From Yuukianura sp. NJ FZ-2021 (taxonomy: Eukaryota), in the NCBI GenBank assembly GCA_046563655.1, contig CM102284.1, positions 8,556,001-8,620,000 of the forward strand: a stretch of 64,000 nt of DNA. Direction: 5' to 3'. Positions 280 to 48,993 of the stretch are shown in pieces; positions within the stretch are counted from its first letter, which is position 1, and the number at the start of each line of letters is the position of its first letter. The notes beneath the pieces are model-generated. The model was not told where the DNA came from and searched no databases. It saw only the letters and a list, made by a program, of their open reading frames with translations. A program made the translations under genes and the position numbers.

Positions 280-2436
280 TCAGCAGAAAGGTTGGAGTAT
301 GGATATCTGTTTGGGTTTGTCCAAAAGTTTTGATCGACGAGGTTGATACGCCTCTGATACATTTGGAAAGCGTATATCCCATGGTACAGATTTCGCACGA
401 TTGCAGTTGATCAAATCCAATTTTTGAACAGTATCAAAAATACTTCCATCAAATAGTGGCTGGATACCATCTTCAATTTCATCATAATAGTCACGAAATT
501 CGTCACCATAGTGGTATTTTACAGAAAAACTTCTGAGATTTGGAAATTGTGCTGCCGATAAAGGAGTCGAGAGGAAGGGTTGACTCATATTATCCCAGTT
601 CGGTTCGGCAAATTCCAGTTCCAGTACTTGTAGATTTGGGAGCATTGGGATTGTAATAGTGCACCATTCTACGAGGAGCTTCAATTTGTGAAGTGTTGCG
701 GCAGTACATTTTAGTAAAGCGAGAGCCAGGTCCGGAATGACTCGAGCCTCCTCAACAGTACGTGGTATCCTGTTATCATTAAGTAGGTAGAAATCCACGC
801 AGCAGAGGTACAAAGTATGCAGCAGAGTTGGCAATGGGCTTGCGATTAACTTTTGAACTAGAAGAATATGCCATTCAATATGCAATTCAAGCTCGACAGC
901 ATCAAAATTTTGAAGCAGTCGCACGTATTCTGTTGCTTGAATATCTGAAGTTGCTTTCACACCGAAACTGCATTCGACAACTTGAAGTGCCGGTGCATTG
1001 GAAAACCATGATGAAAACTGATCGAATTTGATTTGCTCAATTTGATCGCGATACGACCATTCCGCTTTTTTTGAGCAGGGGCTGACTTCAATGTACTTCA
1101 GTTTAGGAAGATAGAATGATGAGTTCAAAGCAACCGCCGTGGAGCATCTGTCGTTGTATCCGTAAACGGAAAGTTTTTCCAAGTTTGGTGCCTGGGCCAG
1201 TATAACTTCGAAGACCTCATCTGTATCCCCAGCAAATTTGGGCTCCAAGTGTATCACGTAGTGTTTGACAAATGGCCCCACGGTATCGGCCAGTTTCTTC
1301 AATGAGGCAAGAGTTGGAAAAATTTGACATGTTTCATTGCTGATTGGAGATTTGGATGTGCACAAGTACAATTGGAATTTGGAAAATGGGAATTTTGTGT
1401 CTTGCAGTCTGCCCTCCATCGTTTCCAGAAACTGTTGTATTTGTTTGTCGATTTCTTCCCCTCCGCTGCGGGTAGTGCGTTCAGCACAAAATTCGACCGG
1501 TAGGCCTTTCTGGAATATATGGTGAGTGGTTATTTCGTTCCAAGCTCTGCTAACTGTTCGCCATGTTAAAAGATCCTTGGGGTCATCCACATAACCAAGA
1601 ATCTTGAACAGCACCTAATATTAATCGAAACGTTTGTAAGGTTTTTGTTCAAAGTGCTTCAATTCATTTTATAGTCAAACGAAAGAACATTCCCTAACAT
1701 TAAACTTAAAAAGTAAGCCAAATAGTAAACTAAACTTTACAACACAACTGCATGACTCACCTCATTTGGAAGACGTGGATTACTGCCGTCAGACGTCTGT
1801 GATGGCAAATTCATTGCCAAAATATGGTTGGATTCTACCAAACGGGGCCCAGATGAAACATGGTAGAAACCTTGAGAGTTTAGATTCCCGCTTGGATCAA
1901 CATCCTCCATCATAAACGCGGACGGCTCTATCGGAGAAATCTAAAATGTTTTAAATTAAAAAAAATCAGCATTAGTTTTTGAAATTTATCGCTTTAAGTC
2001 ATAAATAGACAGCTATTCATTCGTAAATGGTAGTAGAAAAATTTCCAAACTGGGACCGGAATAGAAGGTGCAACTGTAACAGTGTACTCACCATATCCCC
2101 AACGAAAGTGCAGCCGTATCGATAGCCCGAAGACTGCAATGCGCTCATAGACACGTTTTGTGTAATCTGAAACTGGGGACTCAGCGACTCGCTAACAATG
2201 ACCCTTGTACCTTCGATGGGATTGGAGGAAGTAGCTCTGAAAATTGAAGAAAAATTATGAGCCGTCCTCGTCCGGTTATAAGCTTCCGTTAAGAATACAT
2301 TACCTTTTAGTGCAATACGCTTGTGCAGCTCTTCTAAAGTTCCTGATCCTGGCTTATCTTTGAATCTAGGGTCAACACGCAATGCAGTATGCAGTATCAG
2401 GAGGCACTGGACGAGTCCAGACCAGGCAGGGTACAT
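280..2436 (-). CDS. F-box domain protein with C-terminal LRR/RNI-like region
   Basis: Exons 1761-1940 and 280-1614 join in phase 0 (GT-AG) to give LPNEVLFKILGYVDDPKDLLTWRTVSRAWNEI, an F-box motif; downstream LxxLxL repeats. An upstream exon 2092-2436 is in frame; otherwise the start is ATG 1913. Confidence 0.8.
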
Positions 2437-5054: not shown

Positions 5055-5201
5055 TTCAAGAAAAGAGTAGTAGGGCTGTTGATGCAATAAAGATGTTTAT
5101 TTTGAAATGAAAAAAGAGAGGCCAGAACAGAATCTAATTGAAGAGAGAAAGAAGTGTGACCTTAAAGGTCAGTCCAGGTCATGGTCTAACTATCCAGCAA
5201 C

Positions 5202-6347
5202 TTACTCCTCACCGCCTTCCTCCGCTGGTGTAGTTGTGCGTGGTTTGCGAGTGCGACGAGTACGTCCGCCTCGTTTTTGTTTGGCCAATTCCTCACCGTC
5301 ACCACCGTCGTCTGATGGAGTCGTCGTGCGTGGTTTTCGCGTGCGACGAGTACGACCTCCGCGTTTTTGTTTTTCCAAAATGTCGAAAGACCGTTCCATC
5401 GCAACCGGAGTTGGAGCTGCAGTTGGAGCTGCAGTTGTAGGAGCTGCGGTGGTGGGTGCTGCGGTGGTGGGTGCTGCGGTGGTGGGTGCTGCGGTGGTGG
5501 GAGCAGCAGTGGTTGGTGCAGCGGTGGTGGCTGCAGTGGTTGTGCGCCTCCTCCTCCTCCTCCTCTTCTTTCCTCCGCGTCCACAGTTAGGCTTCCCCTC
5601 CTCCGCCTCCTTGCCAGACCCGCCCTTGAGAACGTCAAAGTCTGGAATCAACTCCTCCGTCGTGGTGGGTTCCGTGGGGGTGGTGGTGGGCGCTTCAGTT
5701 GTTGTGGTGGTAGTTGTGGTTGTGGTGGTGGTGGTTGGAGTGGTGGTGGTGGGAGTGGTGGGTCTTGGTGTGGGTGGGAGGCGGGTGGGGCGTCTGGTGC
5801 GTGGAGCTTGTGTAGTGGTGGGTCCTCCGTTGTCTAAAAAATGAAATGTTAAGTGGAGGGTCAAAGGTCACTGCTAAACTGAGTTACTCACCACCGCAGT
5901 TGCAAGTGACGTTGCGACAGTTTCTCCATCGCTGCGTCCGGAAAGATTCTCTGGGTGTTCTGCTGAGTCTGTAGGGTTGGCAGAAGCAAGTGTAGTTGTA
6001 GTCACGAGTCACAGTTCGGTTGTAGAAGATCTTCGGACAAGTGTTGCCGTTTCGCACTAAAAGTACGAATTTTAATAAAATAAGTAACTCACAAGTATTT
6101 AATAAAATATATTATGAAGAACATACTTTCTTTGCTGGGAGTTTCATATTGTACTCCTGCATCAACCACTTGGAAGATCTCACCCTGGCATTCGATCGCC
6201 ACCACCGCAGACAGAACCTAAACATTCAAAATTGAATGCATTTTTTTTTAAAAAAGTTTTGGAAAAGTTTTTTTTTCTTAATTTTTTGATTTTTGAATTT
6301 TTGGAACTTACGCCTGCGATTGCAGCGAAGAAGTGGAGTTTGTTCAT
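5202..6347 (-). CDS. Secreted mucin-like protein: 6-Cys domain plus Thr/Pro-rich and Arg-rich repeats
   Basis: Four exons (6312-6347, ~6127-6217, 5892-6056, 5202-~5833) splice in frame: MNKLHFFAAIAGVLSAVVA signal, CPKIFYNR...CFCQP...CRNVTCNCG, then PTTAA repeats. Confidence 0.8.
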
Positions 6348-13931: not shown

Positions 13932-14608
13932 ATGGGTGAAATCCCAATCATTTTCCTAGTCTTCGTTCTCGTCTGGGTGGTAAGAGATTCAACTTTTTAG
14001 TTTCGAGGTCAAAGGTCACTCAAAGGCATTTCTCTGACCAAAGTTTGTTTCTTAGGCGGTGATTGTATGCTGTAGGAGTTTTTCCTCGGAGGATTTGTAC
14101 ATGAGTGAACGAGCGAGGCGAAGAGAAATCATTCTGAGTAGGAGACAAAATTCAGAAAAATACAAATTTTGAAATTTGAAATTGGAAAATTCGGAAATTG
14201 AAATGAGTTAATGTTGTTGTAGGTCAGCAACAAGCTCTGCGTCAATGTCACCTTCCGATTATGCATGGGCGAGGTGCCCGGGAGACGAGGAGTGCCGACT
14301 TCCGAGTGACCCCGATCCGGGTAACGACAATTTCCCGCGGAGGGGGCAGCATCAACATGGACTTTTACGAAATTCAACTGCCACAGAGGACGCACTCTCC
14401 ACTAAGAAGTGGAACTGAGCGATTAAGAGACACTCCAGTCCCACCGCCACCCTTCAACACAGCATATTTAGTGTCTTCTCCGGTGGGCCAACCAGAAGAT
14501 GTCCCACCACCCACATACGAAGAGTCACTCAAAAGTGACACGCCCAAAGGTCAACTCGGGTCAAGCAGGGGTCAAAAACCTCACACAGATACGGAAATCC
14601 ACATTTAA
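13932..14608 (+). CDS. Small single-pass membrane protein with PPxY motif (cluster gene 2)
   Basis: Exon 1 13932-13979 MGEIPIIFLVFVLVWV joins AVIVCC; last exon 14223-14608 with VPPPPF and VPPPTYEE. Exon 2 donor position uncertain. Confidence 0.68.
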
Positions 14609-14654
14609 CAACAATCTTCAATTAGTTTTTAAGTAATTTCTCATACAAAATTAA

Positions 14655-14808
14655 ATTTTCTAGGAGAAATTAACTTTCTAGGAGAAAATTTCCTAGCAGA
14701 AACTAATTTTCTAGAAGAAAAAAAATGTCTAGGAGAAATTACTTTTCTAGGAGAAAGTTTTCTACGAGAAATTACTTTTCTAGGAGAAAGTTTTCTAGGA
14801 GAAATTTT
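14655..14808. repeat. Minisatellite of near-palindromic TTTTCTAGGAGAAA units
   Basis: About 8-9 degenerate copies in tandem. Confidence 0.8.
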
Positions 14809-15306
14809 CAAAATTTCAAAAGTATTTGACTTGAAGAACTTTTTAAATATTTTAAATGTCGTTCATCTGATGCGAAATCAAACTTTTTTTTTCATAAAAT
14901 ACCATGTTCAAACTAGAAATATTTTTAAATGGAGCTGAAGCGAATTCAAATATTTCCGAAATTCCGAAACGAATTTTAAATACTAACTGTGTAAAATTGA
15001 AGTTTTACGAAAACAGTAAAAGCAATTGCTCATTTTATGTTTTTTAAGTGTGCAATTTGGAGGAAGACAATTTGCAAAAATTATTGCCAAAATCCCAACG
15101 TCACAAATATGATCCTTATCTGTCAAACGACTACGGTGACCCCGCGGCGCAAAATATTTGCACAAAATCCCATGCTAATTTTAAACTTTAACGCTTCCTC
15201 CTACCAATTCAACCAAGATTCACTTGAACAAGTGACTTAATTGCAAAATCAATTAACAAAATTAACTAATTTTTGAAGACAAGTGTTAGTTTTGAAGTAG
15301 TTAGGA

Positions 15307-15787
15307 ATGGACCAACTGTCTCTCGCTGGATTTATACTCGTCGTCAGTGTCCTCTCTGTCTTTTTCATCTTGCTTGTAAGAATACGTTTTCAGAAAAACG
15401 GAAATTTTTCACAGAAAACAGGAAATTAAAAATTTTGAATTTTCTCTTTTTTAAATTTTCCAGTCAATTTTTGCCGGGTACAAACTGTGGAAGAGTACTT
15501 GGGTTGATGCGAGAGAGCTTGACCTTGACATTAGTCAGTCCCTCTACTACATTCCGCGACTTCAAAGTACTCCAGACGGGATTCGATCACTGTCCACCCA
15601 TGTGCACCACCATGTCCATGTCCACGAGACCATGGCCATGTCACTCCCCACTTACGCCCATGTCACAGCACACAGTGACGACTACCCAACTCCACTTGAG
15701 GTCATGGAGGTCATCACCCTCGAAACACCGCCGCCACACTACGAAGACGTCGATCTCAGAATCCAACACCACTTGAACTACATTTAA
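15307..15787 (+). CDS. Small single-pass membrane protein with LPxY/PPxY motifs (cluster gene 3)
   Basis: Exons 15307-15375 and 15464-15787; TM LAGFILVVSVLSVFFILLSIFAGY; tail LPTY and TPPPHYEDV. Confidence 0.72.
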
Positions 15788-15851
15788 ACTCAAATTCCAA
15801 CAATTAAAAAGCTAAAAGTAAAAAGTTAAAAAGTTAAAAGTTAAAAGTTAA

Positions 15852-15923
15852 AGTTTATTCAGTGCATCAGCCAATCAATGTTAAGCAAAGCCCAGTGACA
15901 TTGACGGCATCATGGAATAAACT
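15852..15923 (-). promoter_or_regulatory. SECIS element (type II, atypical CAC apical bulge)
   Basis: Minus strand: GTTTATTC C ATGA T GCCGTCAATGT CAC TGGGC TTT GCTTA ACATTGATTGGC TGAT GCACT GAATAAAC. This gives helix I, the AUGA/GA core, an 11-bp helix II and a ministem. Confidence 0.85.
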
Positions 15924-15929
15924 CAAAGG

Positions 15930-16477
15930 TCAGTGACCTTTGGATGACCCTGGCGACGGGTCACCAGCCTTGGCAACCGCAACTGCAGCCACTTCAGCAA
16001 CTTCTTCGTTTTCTGTTGCCACTCTCTGGAATCCGTGACTCGTCATGATTTGGCGACATTCACGACGGTTTTTGCCCTGCAGATTAACAGTTTCCACAGT
16101 AACGCCAGCCTCGTTTTGGAAATTTAAAACTGGACCACCCGCTTCCATCAGAACCACGTCCACGTTCTCACTTAAAACATAGAAGGTCAAAGGTCAACGT
16201 TTGACATTTAGTTTTTAGACTTACAAGAAAGCAAAGTCGAGGGCAATGAACTCCATGACTGTCGGATGGTCCATCAAACTTCACAAGCAAAACTAAAAAA
16301 CACTTTGCATTACAAATTGTAGTTTAAAATCGCCCAATTTTCACACTTTTAAATTTTAATTGCGAATTTGCGATTTACCTGCAGAACGGCTTTGACTATT
16401 CCGCTGTCTTTGACTTTCGTTACATTAGGTTTTGCATTCCCACTGGAGTTCCCGCTGCTCTTGTTACGGGAAGCCAT
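15930..16477 (-). CDS. Selenoprotein of the Sep15/SelM thioredoxin-like family (CxU; Sec TGA at 16281-16283), 135 aa
   Basis: Exons 16379-16477, 16225-16292 and 15930-16170 (GT-AG, phases 0 and 2) give ...KAVLQFCL-U-SLMDHPTVMEFIALDFAFFENVDVVLMEAGGPVLNFQNEAGVTVETVNLQGKNRRECRQIMTSHGFQR, colinear with the Sep15/SelM redox domain; SECIS in the 3' UTR. Confidence 0.85.
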
Positions 16478-19091
16478 TTGACCTTTGACCTTTCACAAAT
16501 TTTGACCTCGCATCAAGGAAACATGATTTGCGTGTGGCACAATCCGTTGTGTTGGGCGATAAAATTATTGATAACTTGTTTATTTTTGGTTCACTTGGAC
16601 GCCACTCTTACGGAAAAAATGACAAAAACTGCAAAAATCACCGTTTTGCGAAATTCTTATCTTGTCATTTCAGTATTCTCCGAACTGTGATGCATTTTTG
16701 CAAAAATTTATTCGCATATCGCTAGATAAATGTGATTGTAATTTTTTTTTGCAATCAATACAAACTAAAAGTCCAAAGTTGAATAATTTGATTTCGACAT
16801 AATGGAGCAATAAGTACTTTTTAAAAAACAGGAACACGTCACATTGTTGTGCGTACTTTGTTCATGGCCATTACATCACACCACCTCCGTTTGCCCTTTT
16901 TTTTCGGAGATCCTTTGCAGAAGATAGACTTCAACATTTGCAAAAAATTGCAAAGAACAAAGATCGTCATTGTCCACTGCCCAGCATAACAACAAACAAC
17001 AAGGTCGGCATCCATTGAGCAGCCGACGGGAGTCTACACTTTTTTGTAAATATTTTGCACAGTATGCGTCATCTCTCTTCTGATATTTCGCAAATCATCA
17101 CCCTCCACAGTTTCTTCTACTTCACATTCACAGTCATTCCCAAATCATAAACACAACGTTACAGTCATCCCAAAAATTACAACGATTGTTATTGAATTTG
17201 CGAATTCTCACTTTCCCCGAATTACAAAATATTCTGAAATAACTGAAAAGAGCGGGAGCGGACTGTTGAATTTTCAAATTTTACGTACATGGTTGAACTG
17301 GCCAATCAGAAATTAGGCACTTTTATTTTTCGTACGAGACAAAAAGGTTCGCTTCCTCCCATACGATTTACTAAGGTATGCAGTGTCTACGTGCCTTCGT
17401 CCAACTAAAGTCGTTAGTTAATCAGGGTTAATCAATTAATTAACTGAAGATCTCGTTACGAAATCATCGTCAATCGTTGTTTGGGATTGGTTCATAGATA
17501 CACCTAACGGTAAGTACGACGAAATCGAAGTTTGATACAGTTAAAAAGGGATGTTTTTTGGTTTAGCCGGGATGACATTGTCGTTGTGGTTGGAGGGTAA
17601 GATTCATATCGTGAGTGAAAGCGGAAGTGCCTGGCGCAGTGGAGTGTCCGAATTCCTTCGTTTGTCGGAGGAAGTGTGGGGTGATGTGTGGGGTGACCAA
17701 TGGGAATGTGCAAAGTGGTGAATGAACTGAAACGCAGCTAAACAGGAATTTGGCCAAATAGTCTCACGCTCATCTTCACCACATTCACATTCTTACTTTC
17801 GTTGAGCCAGTTGTTTATTCGCAAGTGGCAGTGGACATACACTTTATTTCACTCTCTCATTCATACTTCTGTTATTTTTCAGTGACAAGCGGAGTGGAGT
17901 AGTTTTACAAGTCGGAGAGTTATCTTGTTGCGGAAAACCGAGAAAGGAGTCGGAAGACCTTGGCCCAGTGCCCTTCTCTCCTGGTGCAAAAGCAGGTTTT
18001 CCAACAGACCACTTCCACAACAGACTCTTTGACATTGGCAGATCGTGCCCAATTGAACACAACTAAGGTAAACAACTTTGTTCCACTCTTCGTCCTTTTA
18101 CTTTTAACAAACAATTGTGCACAATTATATCATTTACAAGTTCATATTCACTTTGTGGATGCTATCACTGGTTAGTCTTAGTTTGTAGGTCAGGAGTCAG
18201 AGGTCATCAGTCTTATTCCAACCATGCCCAGTATCGGAGTTCACAAGAGGTTACCAGATTAGGAAATCAACGATTCATGGAAGTTCTTTAGGGAATTACG
18301 CAATTCACAAGTCCAGACATTTCCCATCAACTTCGTTCTCTCGGAGTCCGATTCTTCGATTTCCAATAATCCCAACTTCAGTATGACGCCGCTCGATAAC
18401 CATTTTCCGTATCACCCTTCGAGGTCAACGTTTTAATCAGATCTCGGATGCAATGTCGCAAAATACAAGTTACACTAGCATTATTTTGGCATTCTCATTT
18501 TAACAACTAGGAAGCGTGAAAATGAGCGTAAACTGCTTACTTATCATTTGGAGTGATCCAGACGAGGACGAAGGTGATGAAAGTGGTGGGATTAAGTATC
18601 GATAGTGTCAAGTATTTATTAATTTAAATCCTACTTTTAGATGTTGAGATAGCGGGTCAGTGGGGCGATGGATGTGTGAGTTAGTGGAGTTTGATGTCCA
18701 AGGTCGGAAGGTGGGCAGATATGGTGTGGACAATGGCCTCTGTCCACCTTCTGCCTAAATGGACAACTCAACTAGTTAACTAGTGAGGATTTTAAGCAGA
18801 GGAGGATGTAGTGAGTAGATTAGTGGAAGTGTTTAGATAAAGTGCCGCATGGCCATGGATGTCAATGTGTCTATGTGAGTCCAATGTATGCCATAACCAT
18901 GCCACTTTTTGAAACGGGTGGAGAGGGGAAGTGTTTTTTAAGTAGCTCACTTTAGTCTCAACACTCTCCGAATCAAGTCTAATTCTCTTCATTTCCTTTC
19001 AGACTCAGTTGCCGGTCAGGCTTGTCAACTCTCCGAGGAGCCCTTAAGGACAACCCAAGTACCCTTGGCATTTCCTGGACAAGAGGAAGAG

Positions 19092-34566: not shown

Positions 34567-36211
34567 TTATGCAGCATCTGAGTCATTATCGTCATAGCCT
34601 TCTACAGCGTCATCCGATTTTCCAGTCGCTTGAAACAAGTTCAGTTTCTTCTCCTTCCTTCGGCGCTTCTTGTCTCCTCGTCGTGGTTTCTCCTCTTTTA
34701 GCTTCTCCTCCATTTCAACCAAACGTTTAGCAGCTTCCTCCACGGCAGATCGCTTTATGGCTCGAGTTCGGCGACTTTCATGTTTAAATCCCAATGGAAA
34801 CTGTCCCTTGGTCAGTTTTTGAAATCTGAAAGATATAAATATATAAAATACTGGTCTAATTTCACGATTTCTAAGTTTTCCTTAGCTAATTGACTTACTC
34901 TCGAACCAATGACATTAGAATTTTTCTGTTCTTCGCCCTGGTATTCTCCTGGGTGGCGGAAGCTGTAAGTTTTTCAATGAGTGCTTCGTAGTCGATATTC
35001 AGTTGAGGTAAAACGACATCAACTTGACCAGCACGTGGATCAAGCGGTCCATTTTTAGTCGGCTCATTGCTCAATTCATTGTCGTCGCTCTCGTTCATCT
35101 CTTCATCGTCTAACTCCTGTAAAATTTAAGTGTTTGATTACTTCTACTATCGCTATTTAAATCAAAAGTAAAACAAGAATACTAAAGTAAGTGATGTTTA
35201 CCACTAATTCCATCGTGCCTCCGCGTGACTCGACGTAATCGATCCCTACATCGCTCTGTTTCATCAAGTGGTGAAATATCCTGGTCTTGATTTCTTCTAG
35301 CAGGCGATCGTCATCATTTTGAGCCATTTCATCAATGAACGGAGTCAGTAGCCTTAGAATGTTGTCACTTTCCAATGACGATCCACCGATCTTTGCTAGT
35401 TCTTCGAGGAAGATATTGATAATGTGCATCTGGAAACCCATTGGTGCTTTCGGGGGTTGCGGAGTCTTCTTGGCAGCCTTTTTAGAAAGAGGAGGGTGGT
35501 GATTGAACAGGTTGATTGCAATGATTCTGTCGAATTGGTCCAAAAGTTCCACGTTCCAGTCATGCTTTGAAAACTCCAGTAGCAGTTTACGCAGGAATCT
35601 GCGAATCAACTGCAAAAAAGAACCAGAGTTAGATTTGTGGATTTGGATTTCAATGATTGACTCTTACCATCATGAACTTGTCAAGTCGAAGACGATCAAT
35701 CCAAGGCCATTCTCGTGCAAAAGTTGTGAAGAACCACTGAACAAAGAGCATCATGAGGTTTGGGTTGTGTGAGAAAATGGACAGGAGGTTGCTGATTTGT
35801 TCAGTCAACGTTTCTTGCGGCAACTGTTTGTCAGCCATCCATGTGCAGTAGAACAAGGCCTTCCAAACCCTGGCGAAGTTACCATCAAGGTGCTCTCGTT
35901 CTTGAGTATCTGAAATCAAAAAACAATTCAAAAGATTCAAGTTTAGAATCAGATTTAGTGCTTTCATAAGTTGTATAAGTACCCAGTGTGTCTGAAACCT
36001 TAGTGGCAATGGCCTTGAGCCACTTTCTCAACTTCCTCATGGTGACCTTCCGTACTTGTGGATCGTTACCCGACAACCGATGAATCATCGTCAATTCAGC
36101 ATTTGTCATATTTTCCAGAATGGCATTGCCAAAACCGATACTTCTCTTCTGCACAGATGGAGACTTTGCTAGTTTGTCTATCGATACTTGTTTCTGAGCA
36201 GTCGCTGCCAT
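34567..36211 (-). CDS. RRP1: Ribosomal RNA processing protein 1 homolog (Nop52/NNP-1)
   Basis: LSGNDPQVRK..LRKWL, VWKALFYCTWMADKQLPQE, FFTTFAREWPWIDRLRLDKFMML, HIINIFLEELAK (Nop52 domain). Confidence 0.92.

Positions 36212-40336: not shown

Positions 40337-45293
<4,957 letters not shown>

Positions 45294-46934: not shown

Positions 46935-48993
<2,059 letters not shown>

Follow-up and report, generated by a model that had tools for sequence, protein, structure and literature searches.

Does a minus-strand reading frame that is interrupted by a single TGA represent a selenoprotein gene and, if so, to which family would its product belong and in which compartment would it work? The question arises from a sequence-only reading of a 64-kb window, by which we mean the whole stretch of DNA that was analysed; positions given below are those of the window unless another contig is named. 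Judged by its sequence, the locus is an unannotated minus-strand gene of three exons, predicted to encode a small, selenocysteine (Sec)-containing redox protein of the Sep15/SelM family. We hold with good confidence the fuller description of this product as a divergent Sep15/SelM selenoprotein with a CxU motif, ~134 residues long and encoded by three exons, which is probably cytosolic or nuclear and in which UGA-37 would be read as Sec by way of a form-2 SECIS element.

Structure of the gene and its surroundings

The minus strand was read between 15500 and 17000. Joining the exons by coordinate gave a frame of 408 nt, i.e. 135 codons and a stop, within which the sole in-frame TGA is found at 16283-16281 in the context ...FCL*SLM.... 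The gene includes the following features, all on the minus strand:

16379..16477, minus strand: coding part of exon 1, 33 codons, with the ATG at 16477 (read from the sequence)
16293..16378, minus strand: intron 1, 86 nt, GTAAAT...TTTTTTAG, GT...AG, with a T-rich tract ahead of the AG
16225..16292, minus strand: exon 2, 68 nt, which encodes the C-L-U redox motif
16281..16283, minus strand: in-frame TGA, codon 37, putatively read as Sec (TGA in the window and in the homologous locus L001, with coding conservation on both sides)
16171..16224, minus strand: intron 2, 54 nt, GTAAGT...GTTTTAAG, phase 2
15930..16170, minus strand: exon 3, with the remaining Sep15/SelM domain, a tail of ~30 residues of low confidence and the stop codon at 15932-15930
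15854..15859, minus strand: AATAAA polyadenylation signal within the 3' arm of SECIS helix I (read from the sequence)

The product of exon 1 is a hydrophilic, basic and Cys-free N-terminal tail, followed by the start of the first beta-strand (IVKAVLQ). Its ATG has an A at -3 and a G at +4. The C-L-U motif follows the first beta-strand at codons 35-37, and residues 1-34 include no Cys. The three GT-AG exons, the 135-residue frame and the single TGA at 16281-16283 that had been proposed from the sequence alone were thus reproduced exactly. The two claims that FCL*SL has the CxU spacing known from Sep15, and that the Cys-rich N-terminal domain of Sep15 is missing, also hold. Two very short upstream ORFs of 3 and 6 codons lie ahead of the main ATG (16478-16540, minus strand), the second of which terminates at the in-frame TGA 6 codons 5' of that ATG.

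A homologous locus is present in L001, a metagenome contig that encodes the database protein P0001 and that is the sole homologous locus compared with the window at the DNA level. The L001 homologue has the same three exons. Its ATG-initiated exon 1 spans 2758-2886 and is followed by a GT-AG intron of 86 nt, equal in length and place to intron 1 of the window. Exon 2 is 68 nt long, as in the window, and reads F-C-L-TGA-S-L-M; the second intron (GT-AG, 82 nt) has the phase and position of the 54-nt intron of the window. Upstream of this homologue, at L001 470-2180 on the plus strand, same-strand exons resemble an ankyrin-repeat protein, as judged by eye from ORF translations. L001 also includes an AATAAA near 2538 and exhibits no synteny with the window.

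Within the window, the 3' ends of the selenoprotein gene and of a convergent plus-strand ORF are only ~65 nt apart. The gap between the poly(A) signal and the stop of this ORF (15787) is filled by a tandem array at 15804-15852, which has a period of 7 and ~6 copies of AAAAGTT and was also scored at periods 15 and 22. Two plus-strand ORFs, 14207-14608 and 15455-15787, encode PPxY-type motifs (PPPTYEE, PPPHYED) and His-rich stretches. Pfam gave no match for either of them. Both probably belong, as exons, to an adaptor-like gene that is unannotated and convergent with the selenoprotein gene. A further tandem repeat, at 14648-14809, has nested periods of 15, 18, 33 and 69 nt and an open frame of NFLGE-like units. 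At 5083-5867, several frames of a low-complexity stretch are open on each strand; the minus-strand translation is mucin-like, rich in Thr, Pro and Ala, whereas that of the plus strand is rich in Val, Gly and Ala. Other genes in the window are:

280-1614, minus strand: single-exon F-box-like ORF, 444 aa
19000-22000, plus strand: AMP-binding, acyl-CoA-synthetase-like gene, divergent from the selenoprotein gene
35157-35663, minus strand: Nop52-domain gene
43834-44391, minus strand: USP7
47756-48277, plus strand: carboxyl-transferase gene (propionyl-CoA carboxylase beta-like)

In pairwise comparisons, the USP7 exon is closest to that of Orchesella cincta, a springtail with which it shares 160 identical residues (86% identity). 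The best insects share 154-157 identical residues with it, a marginal gap to the springtail, and Daphnia is 78% identical. The source of the window is thus arthropod-like and nearest to the hexapods, and may be a springtail.

Family membership and location of the protein

The sequence-only reading had seen a resemblance to SelM in the domain downstream of the TGA and had named the Pfam family Sep15_SelM (PF08806) as a check. The check came out in part: exon 3 alone matches positions 29-75 of the 75-position profile with an E value of 0.0037, but its 17.7 bits fall below the gathering cut-off of 26. Separate Pfam scans of the 23 aa of exon 2 and the 32 aa of exon 1 gave no match. The resemblance itself proved to extend to the whole domain. 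The firefly (beetle) 'Selenoprotein M' P0005, which has a signal peptide, is an undisputed PF08806 member that scores 159.5 bits on the Pfam profile and served as the reference (E values at Z = 1.84e9). Against P0005, exon 3 alone reaches 37.1 bits (E 3.8e-4), whereas the whole spliced window product reaches 69.4 bits (E 3.7e-14) with Sec written as C and 64.0 bits (E 1.8e-12) with Sec written as X. The whole L001 product, with Sec as C, scores 80.7 bits (E 1.2e-17). The part encoded by exons 1 and 2 contributes 10.6 bits on its own, a score that was reached by none of 200 shuffles (143 scored, the best with 8.8 bits). In the alignment the Sec residue falls on the second Cys of the CSAC and CSGC motifs of P0005, with a gap of one residue in the window motif, and the motif is therefore CxU and not CxxC or CxxU.

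Further likenesses are found in the C-terminal half of the domain, where P, N, V-E, N-R, C and G columns are common to five aligned sequences and an invariant N-R-x-x-C...G-F block is common to the window product, a SelF/M protein of an annelid and the SelM of the beetle. Of the ESM-Atlas clusters, the nearest three are assigned to PF08806 (best score 0.88), which is no more than a lead. An AlphaFold model of exon 3 alone folds as strand-strand-helix with a pLDDT of 83-89, falling below 52 in the tail. Compared by Foldseek with 350,542 PDB chains, this model has mouse SelM (2a2p) as its top match, with a probability of 0.90 and an rmsd of 1.3 A over 42 columns, and with an E value of 1.1 that is not significant alone. 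A sequence profile search of the PDB returned no Sep15 or SelM entry, its single row being an unrelated protein (E 0.92). On the P0005 match, the shared C-terminal columns, the ESM-Atlas clusters and the fold lead from exon 3, the predicted protein is a member of the Sep15/SelM domain family; it is probably closest to protostome SelM, Sep15 having been compared by description only.

Relatives of the product are few. With exon 3 (79 aa) as the query, a HMMER search through 1.84 billion representative proteins yielded eight matches at E <= 1e-3, four of which carry the Sep15_SelM domain (P0001, P0002, P0005 and P0008). The other four (P0003, P0004, P0006 and P0007) were rejected as relatives, since a Pfam scan identified them as long bacterial repeat proteins (Ig_7, PASTA and similar). 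P0001 (81 aa, E 4.5e-11) and P0002 (71 aa, E 2.7e-9) are both exon-3-only fragments from metagenome or assembly contigs. Only two canonical family members were thus found with exon 3 at E <= 1e-3 among the 1.84 billion representatives: P0005 and P0008, an annelid 'Selenoprotein F/M domain-containing protein' that also has a signal peptide. A three-sequence profile search of a 5.8-billion protein collection revealed no members beyond P0001 and P0002, and a word-indexed protein search with exon 3 gave no match. The expectation that automated annotation would truncate the gene is borne out by the only two database relatives in this subfamily, both of which cover exon 3 and nothing else.

The two canonical relatives have features of their own. 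P0005 (207 aa) includes two tandem Sep15_SelM domains behind one signal peptide, each with a CxxC motif (CSAC and CSGC), and such a duplicated-domain architecture is unusual for the Sep15/SelM family. P0008 (110 aa) matches the Pfam profile from position 31 only and is without the redox motif; its public gene model probably skipped the Sec-containing exon.

To our knowledge, all described members of the Sep15/SelM family are ER proteins, and the location of the present protein is therefore a question of its own. The tails ahead of the domain are hydrophilic, basic and Cys-free in both loci, with 26 residues in the window and 36 in L001. Mean hydropathy over 9 residues is negative up to the first beta-strand in both, and neither tail includes a hydrophobic segment or a visible signal peptide. 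An in-frame TGA lies 6 codons 5' of the window ATG, which agrees with what had been reported from the sequence alone for the hydrophilic N-terminus. The absence of an ER-retention signal stood up as well, as the C-terminal sequence has no KDEL-like motif, nor does it have a PTS1. The C-tail conserves P, G, S and G across the window product, P0001 and P0002, and includes an S-P-G-x-S-x-G block in the window product and P0001. Two other destinations were considered and rejected: mitochondrial targeting, as the tails contain Asp or Pro and show no amphipathic Arg/Leu pattern by eye, and targeting by a C-terminal PTS1 or KDEL, motifs that are absent.

The hydrophilic basic tail in both species, the missing UGGT-binding domain and the missing retention motif suggest a protein that acts in the cytosol or nucleus and not in the ER lumen, a reading that we regard as likely. 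The main alternative is that the gene is an ordinary ER-luminal SelM or Sep15 orthologue with a signal-peptide exon that was missed further upstream, in which case the ATG at 16477 would be internal or would lie in an intron-flanked exon. Besides the ER residence of the described family, the hydrophobic N-termini of P0005 and P0008 fit this idea, and three N-x-S/T sequons in the window N-tail would fit a luminal protein, although as a weak hint. The window also offers a candidate exon, a lone ATG-ORF with a hydrophobic head at 16970 that is followed by GT dinucleotides. This ORF is not conserved, however; in L001 the final long ORF of the same-strand neighbour upstream stops 577 nt short of the ATG, and this interval includes no hydrophobic-headed ORF. 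When 2.6 kb 5' of the window gene and all of the L001 upstream sequence were scanned, no coding exon conserved between the loci was found. In-frame stops, moreover, are found 6 (window) and 18 (L001) codons 5' of the ATGs. The 15 nt between the upstream stop and the ATG of the window include no acceptor with a pyrimidine tract; the AGs in this gap are preceded by purines, in contrast to the T-rich tracts of the two real acceptors. Both ATGs also have an A at -3. We consider a missed signal-peptide exon unlikely.

The in-frame TGA and the hairpin behind the stop codon

That the TGA would be conserved in orthologs was an expectation of the sequence-only reading, and it is found at the identical codon in both loci (window and L001, the one homologous locus fetched). 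Forty-eight of 82 domain residues are identical between window and L001, 24 of them with different codons, and identity at codon positions 1, 2 and 3 is 59/82, 61/82 and 36/82. NG86 estimates are 0.33 for dN and ~3.0 for dS, which is saturated, with a dN/dS of 0.11. Ahead of the TGA 8 of 10 residues are identical; after it, in the rest of exon 2, 11 of 19 are, 7 of these with synonymous changes. A TGA flanked on either side by purifying selection is the classical mark of a Sec UGA and speaks strongly against a terminating TGA or a chance ORF.

A SECIS element just after the stop had also been claimed. The region includes a hairpin with the following parts, all on the minus strand:

15851..15924, minus strand: SECIS-like element (folding, alignment with L001, covariation)
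15924-15915 paired with 15860-15851, minus strand: helix I (fold)
15913-15910, minus strand: AUGA core (fold)
15908-15898 paired with 15881-15870, minus strand: helix II, a 12-position region (fold)
15897-15895, minus strand: apical bulge CAC (fold)
15894-15890 paired with 15886-15882, minus strand: mini-stem of 5 bp (fold)
15869-15866, minus strand: 3' UGAU (fold)

This hairpin (15924-15851) begins 6 nt 3' of the stop codon and folds with -25.6 kcal/mol (z = -4.3), a value that none of 200 shuffles equalled. A hairpin in the L001 3'UTR has the same fold (z = -2.1). Despite the saturated synonymous sites, 40 of 49 nt in the hairpin core are identical between window and L001, by a hand count on the alignment. 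Seven of the nine differences are at paired positions: one double change is compensatory (G-C to A-U, in the mini-stem), four one-sided changes are compatible with pairing, and one opens the last pair of helix II. Pairing is kept in 31 of 32 cells, compared with 16-47% in controls in which the 3' partners were slid by 1-3 columns; this covariation comes from two sequences only, and a shuffle control is uninformative at n = 2 (254/500).

The usual apical motif of SECIS elements is AA. Here the unpaired apical bases read CAC (window) or CCAC (L001), and Rfam reported no SECIS row at E <= 10 in window 15000-17500, window 15800-15960 or L001 3300-3589; the rows in these three scans are chance-level sRNA, snoRNA and miRNA only. 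Thus the claim of a SECIS stands as far as a conserved AUGA/UGAU hairpin 6 nt beyond the stop is concerned, and falls short of the canonical form, with CAC for AA and no match to the Rfam model. Apical motifs other than AA have been published. According to the available part of PMC3328465, the motif can consist of adenosines or cytidines, and the part of PMC3316567 at hand names mammalian SelM and SelO as the only vertebrate SECIS elements with a CC apical motif. Because apical C and CC motifs are on record for SECIS elements, we infer that the hairpin is a genuine though atypical form-2 SECIS, which would be functional. No tRNA gene of the Sec machinery, or any other tRNA gene, was found within the 64-kb window.

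A different explanation would be that the TGA is not a Sec codon, and that it either terminates a peptide of 36 residues with a decaying relic downstream or is decoded as one of the standard amino acids, the case known from hymenopteran SPS1-UGA. The lack of an Rfam SECIS match and of the apical AA would agree with this, and a conserved UGA with non-Sec readthrough is documented for insect SPS1 in the available text of PMC4561486. The same text, however, describes SPS1-UGA as being without a SECIS, whereas the AUGA/UGAU hairpin here is conserved and covaries. Selection downstream of the TGA equals that upstream, and the TGA falls exactly on the redox Cys/Sec position of the family. We judge a non-Sec TGA to be very improbable. 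ORFs and GT-AG pairs might also have come together by chance, without a gene behind them; the exons are short and the protein collection includes no annotated protein of this locus, but the recurrence of the same exon architecture, motif, TGA position and hairpin in the independent contig L001 at saturated synonymous divergence shows the gene model to be more than chance and, together with the significant SelM homology (P0005), effectively refutes such a chance origin.

With the TGA read as a Sec codon, the SECIS 6 nt past the stop would recruit the Sec machinery, which would recode UGA-37 as selenocysteine. C35 and U37 would then lie where helix 1 of a thioredoxin-like fold begins, the C-L-U pair occupying the position of the CxxC or CxxU of the family, and would cycle between selenol/thiol and reversible selenenylsulfide states. 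Such a selenenylsulfide and an oxidoreductase activity are predicted from sequence features; the protein may be a small thiol-disulfide oxidoreductase that acts outside the ER.

Comparison with known selenoproteins

The protein lacks the defining feature of each named subfamily: the CxxU of SelM, the UGGT-binding domain of Sep15 and the signal peptide of all of them. None of the open-access texts searched describes a Sep15/SelM member that lacks a signal peptide, and such a member is provisionally undescribed; supplementary tables (e.g. Strigamia Table S26) might list one. The broader proposal would be an undescribed nucleo-cytosolic Sep15/SelM clade, with CxU, without signal peptide or UGGT-binding domain, with a basic N-tail, a conserved S-P-G-x-S-x-G C-tail and a CAC-type SECIS, which annotation systematically misses and which would occur in three or more divergent lineages that are arthropod-like. 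We put the chances of this proposal at about even.

Sep15/SelM proteins are generally regarded as part of ER quality control. If a conserved member has no ER-targeting signal, the redox fold would be placed in the cytosol or nucleus, and one would have to ask which substrates it meets there. The hexapod side of the arthropods would, in addition, gain a selenoprotein in a group with selenoproteomes reported to be minimal or lost: in the available parts of two papers, insects are described as having few or no selenoproteins, compared with 20 in a centipede (PMC4244043), and Sec as having been lost altogether in several insect orders (PMC4561486). A springtail genome paper, in the part available, reports four Rfam SECIS hits and no selenoproteome (PMC5644144). 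No description of springtail selenoproteins was found in the open-access texts searched.

If the clade holds, its apical C-A-C would extend a deviation for which the CC of mammalian SelM and SelO has been the sole form on record. Kept in two lineages with saturated synonymous divergence, the CAC motif would be a natural test case for the role of the apical bases, and it is a warning that SECIS scanners based on AA may overlook real elements. The exon-3 fragments that are the sole database relatives of the subfamily offer a concrete case of selenoprotein genes escaping annotation.

Among the known selenoproteins, SelM (SELENOM, PF08806) is probably the closest. Like the predicted window product, it is a small protein with a single thioredoxin-like domain and a Sec in an N-terminal redox motif, and has no Cys-rich extra domain. 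It provides both the best named sequence relatives (beetle SelM and annelid SelF/M) and the top structural match in the PDB (mouse SelM). The SECIS of mammalian SelM also has a non-AA apical motif (CC), according to the available part of PMC3316567. SelM differs in its motif, which is CxxU or CxxC as opposed to the CxU of window and L001, and in its signal peptide, which is not visible in the window product. Unlike SelM, the present subfamily has a basic N-tail of ~26-36 residues and a ~30-residue C-tail that is poorly conserved save for S-P-G-x-S-x-G. The simplest derivation of the protein would start from a protostome SelM that lost its signal peptide, turned its redox motif from CxxU into CxU by deletion of one residue, and gained disordered N- and C-terminal tails.

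The mammalian Sep15 redox motif is CGU. Sep15 (SELENOF) thus has the CxU spacing of the window product as well as the same Pfam domain, but includes a Cys-rich UGGT-binding domain and a signal peptide, both of which the window product lacks.

Fep15 (SELENOE) is a lineage-restricted offshoot of the same family without a UGGT-binding domain, and is ER-resident. In the part of PMC3316567 available, it is restricted to vertebrates, namely fishes, with a Cys homologue in frog. The present subfamily, by comparison, comes from one genome that is arthropod-like and from two contigs of environmental or assembly origin, and its members lack a signal peptide.

In their predicted mode, the selenoproteins of the Rdx group (SelW, SelH), which are cytosolic or nuclear, would resemble the window product, as small, soluble thioredoxin-like proteins with Cys-x(n)-Sec and no signal peptide, and SelH is nuclear and basic. 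No sequence relationship connects this group with the window product, however; the sequence, feature and fold leads all point to Sep15_SelM.
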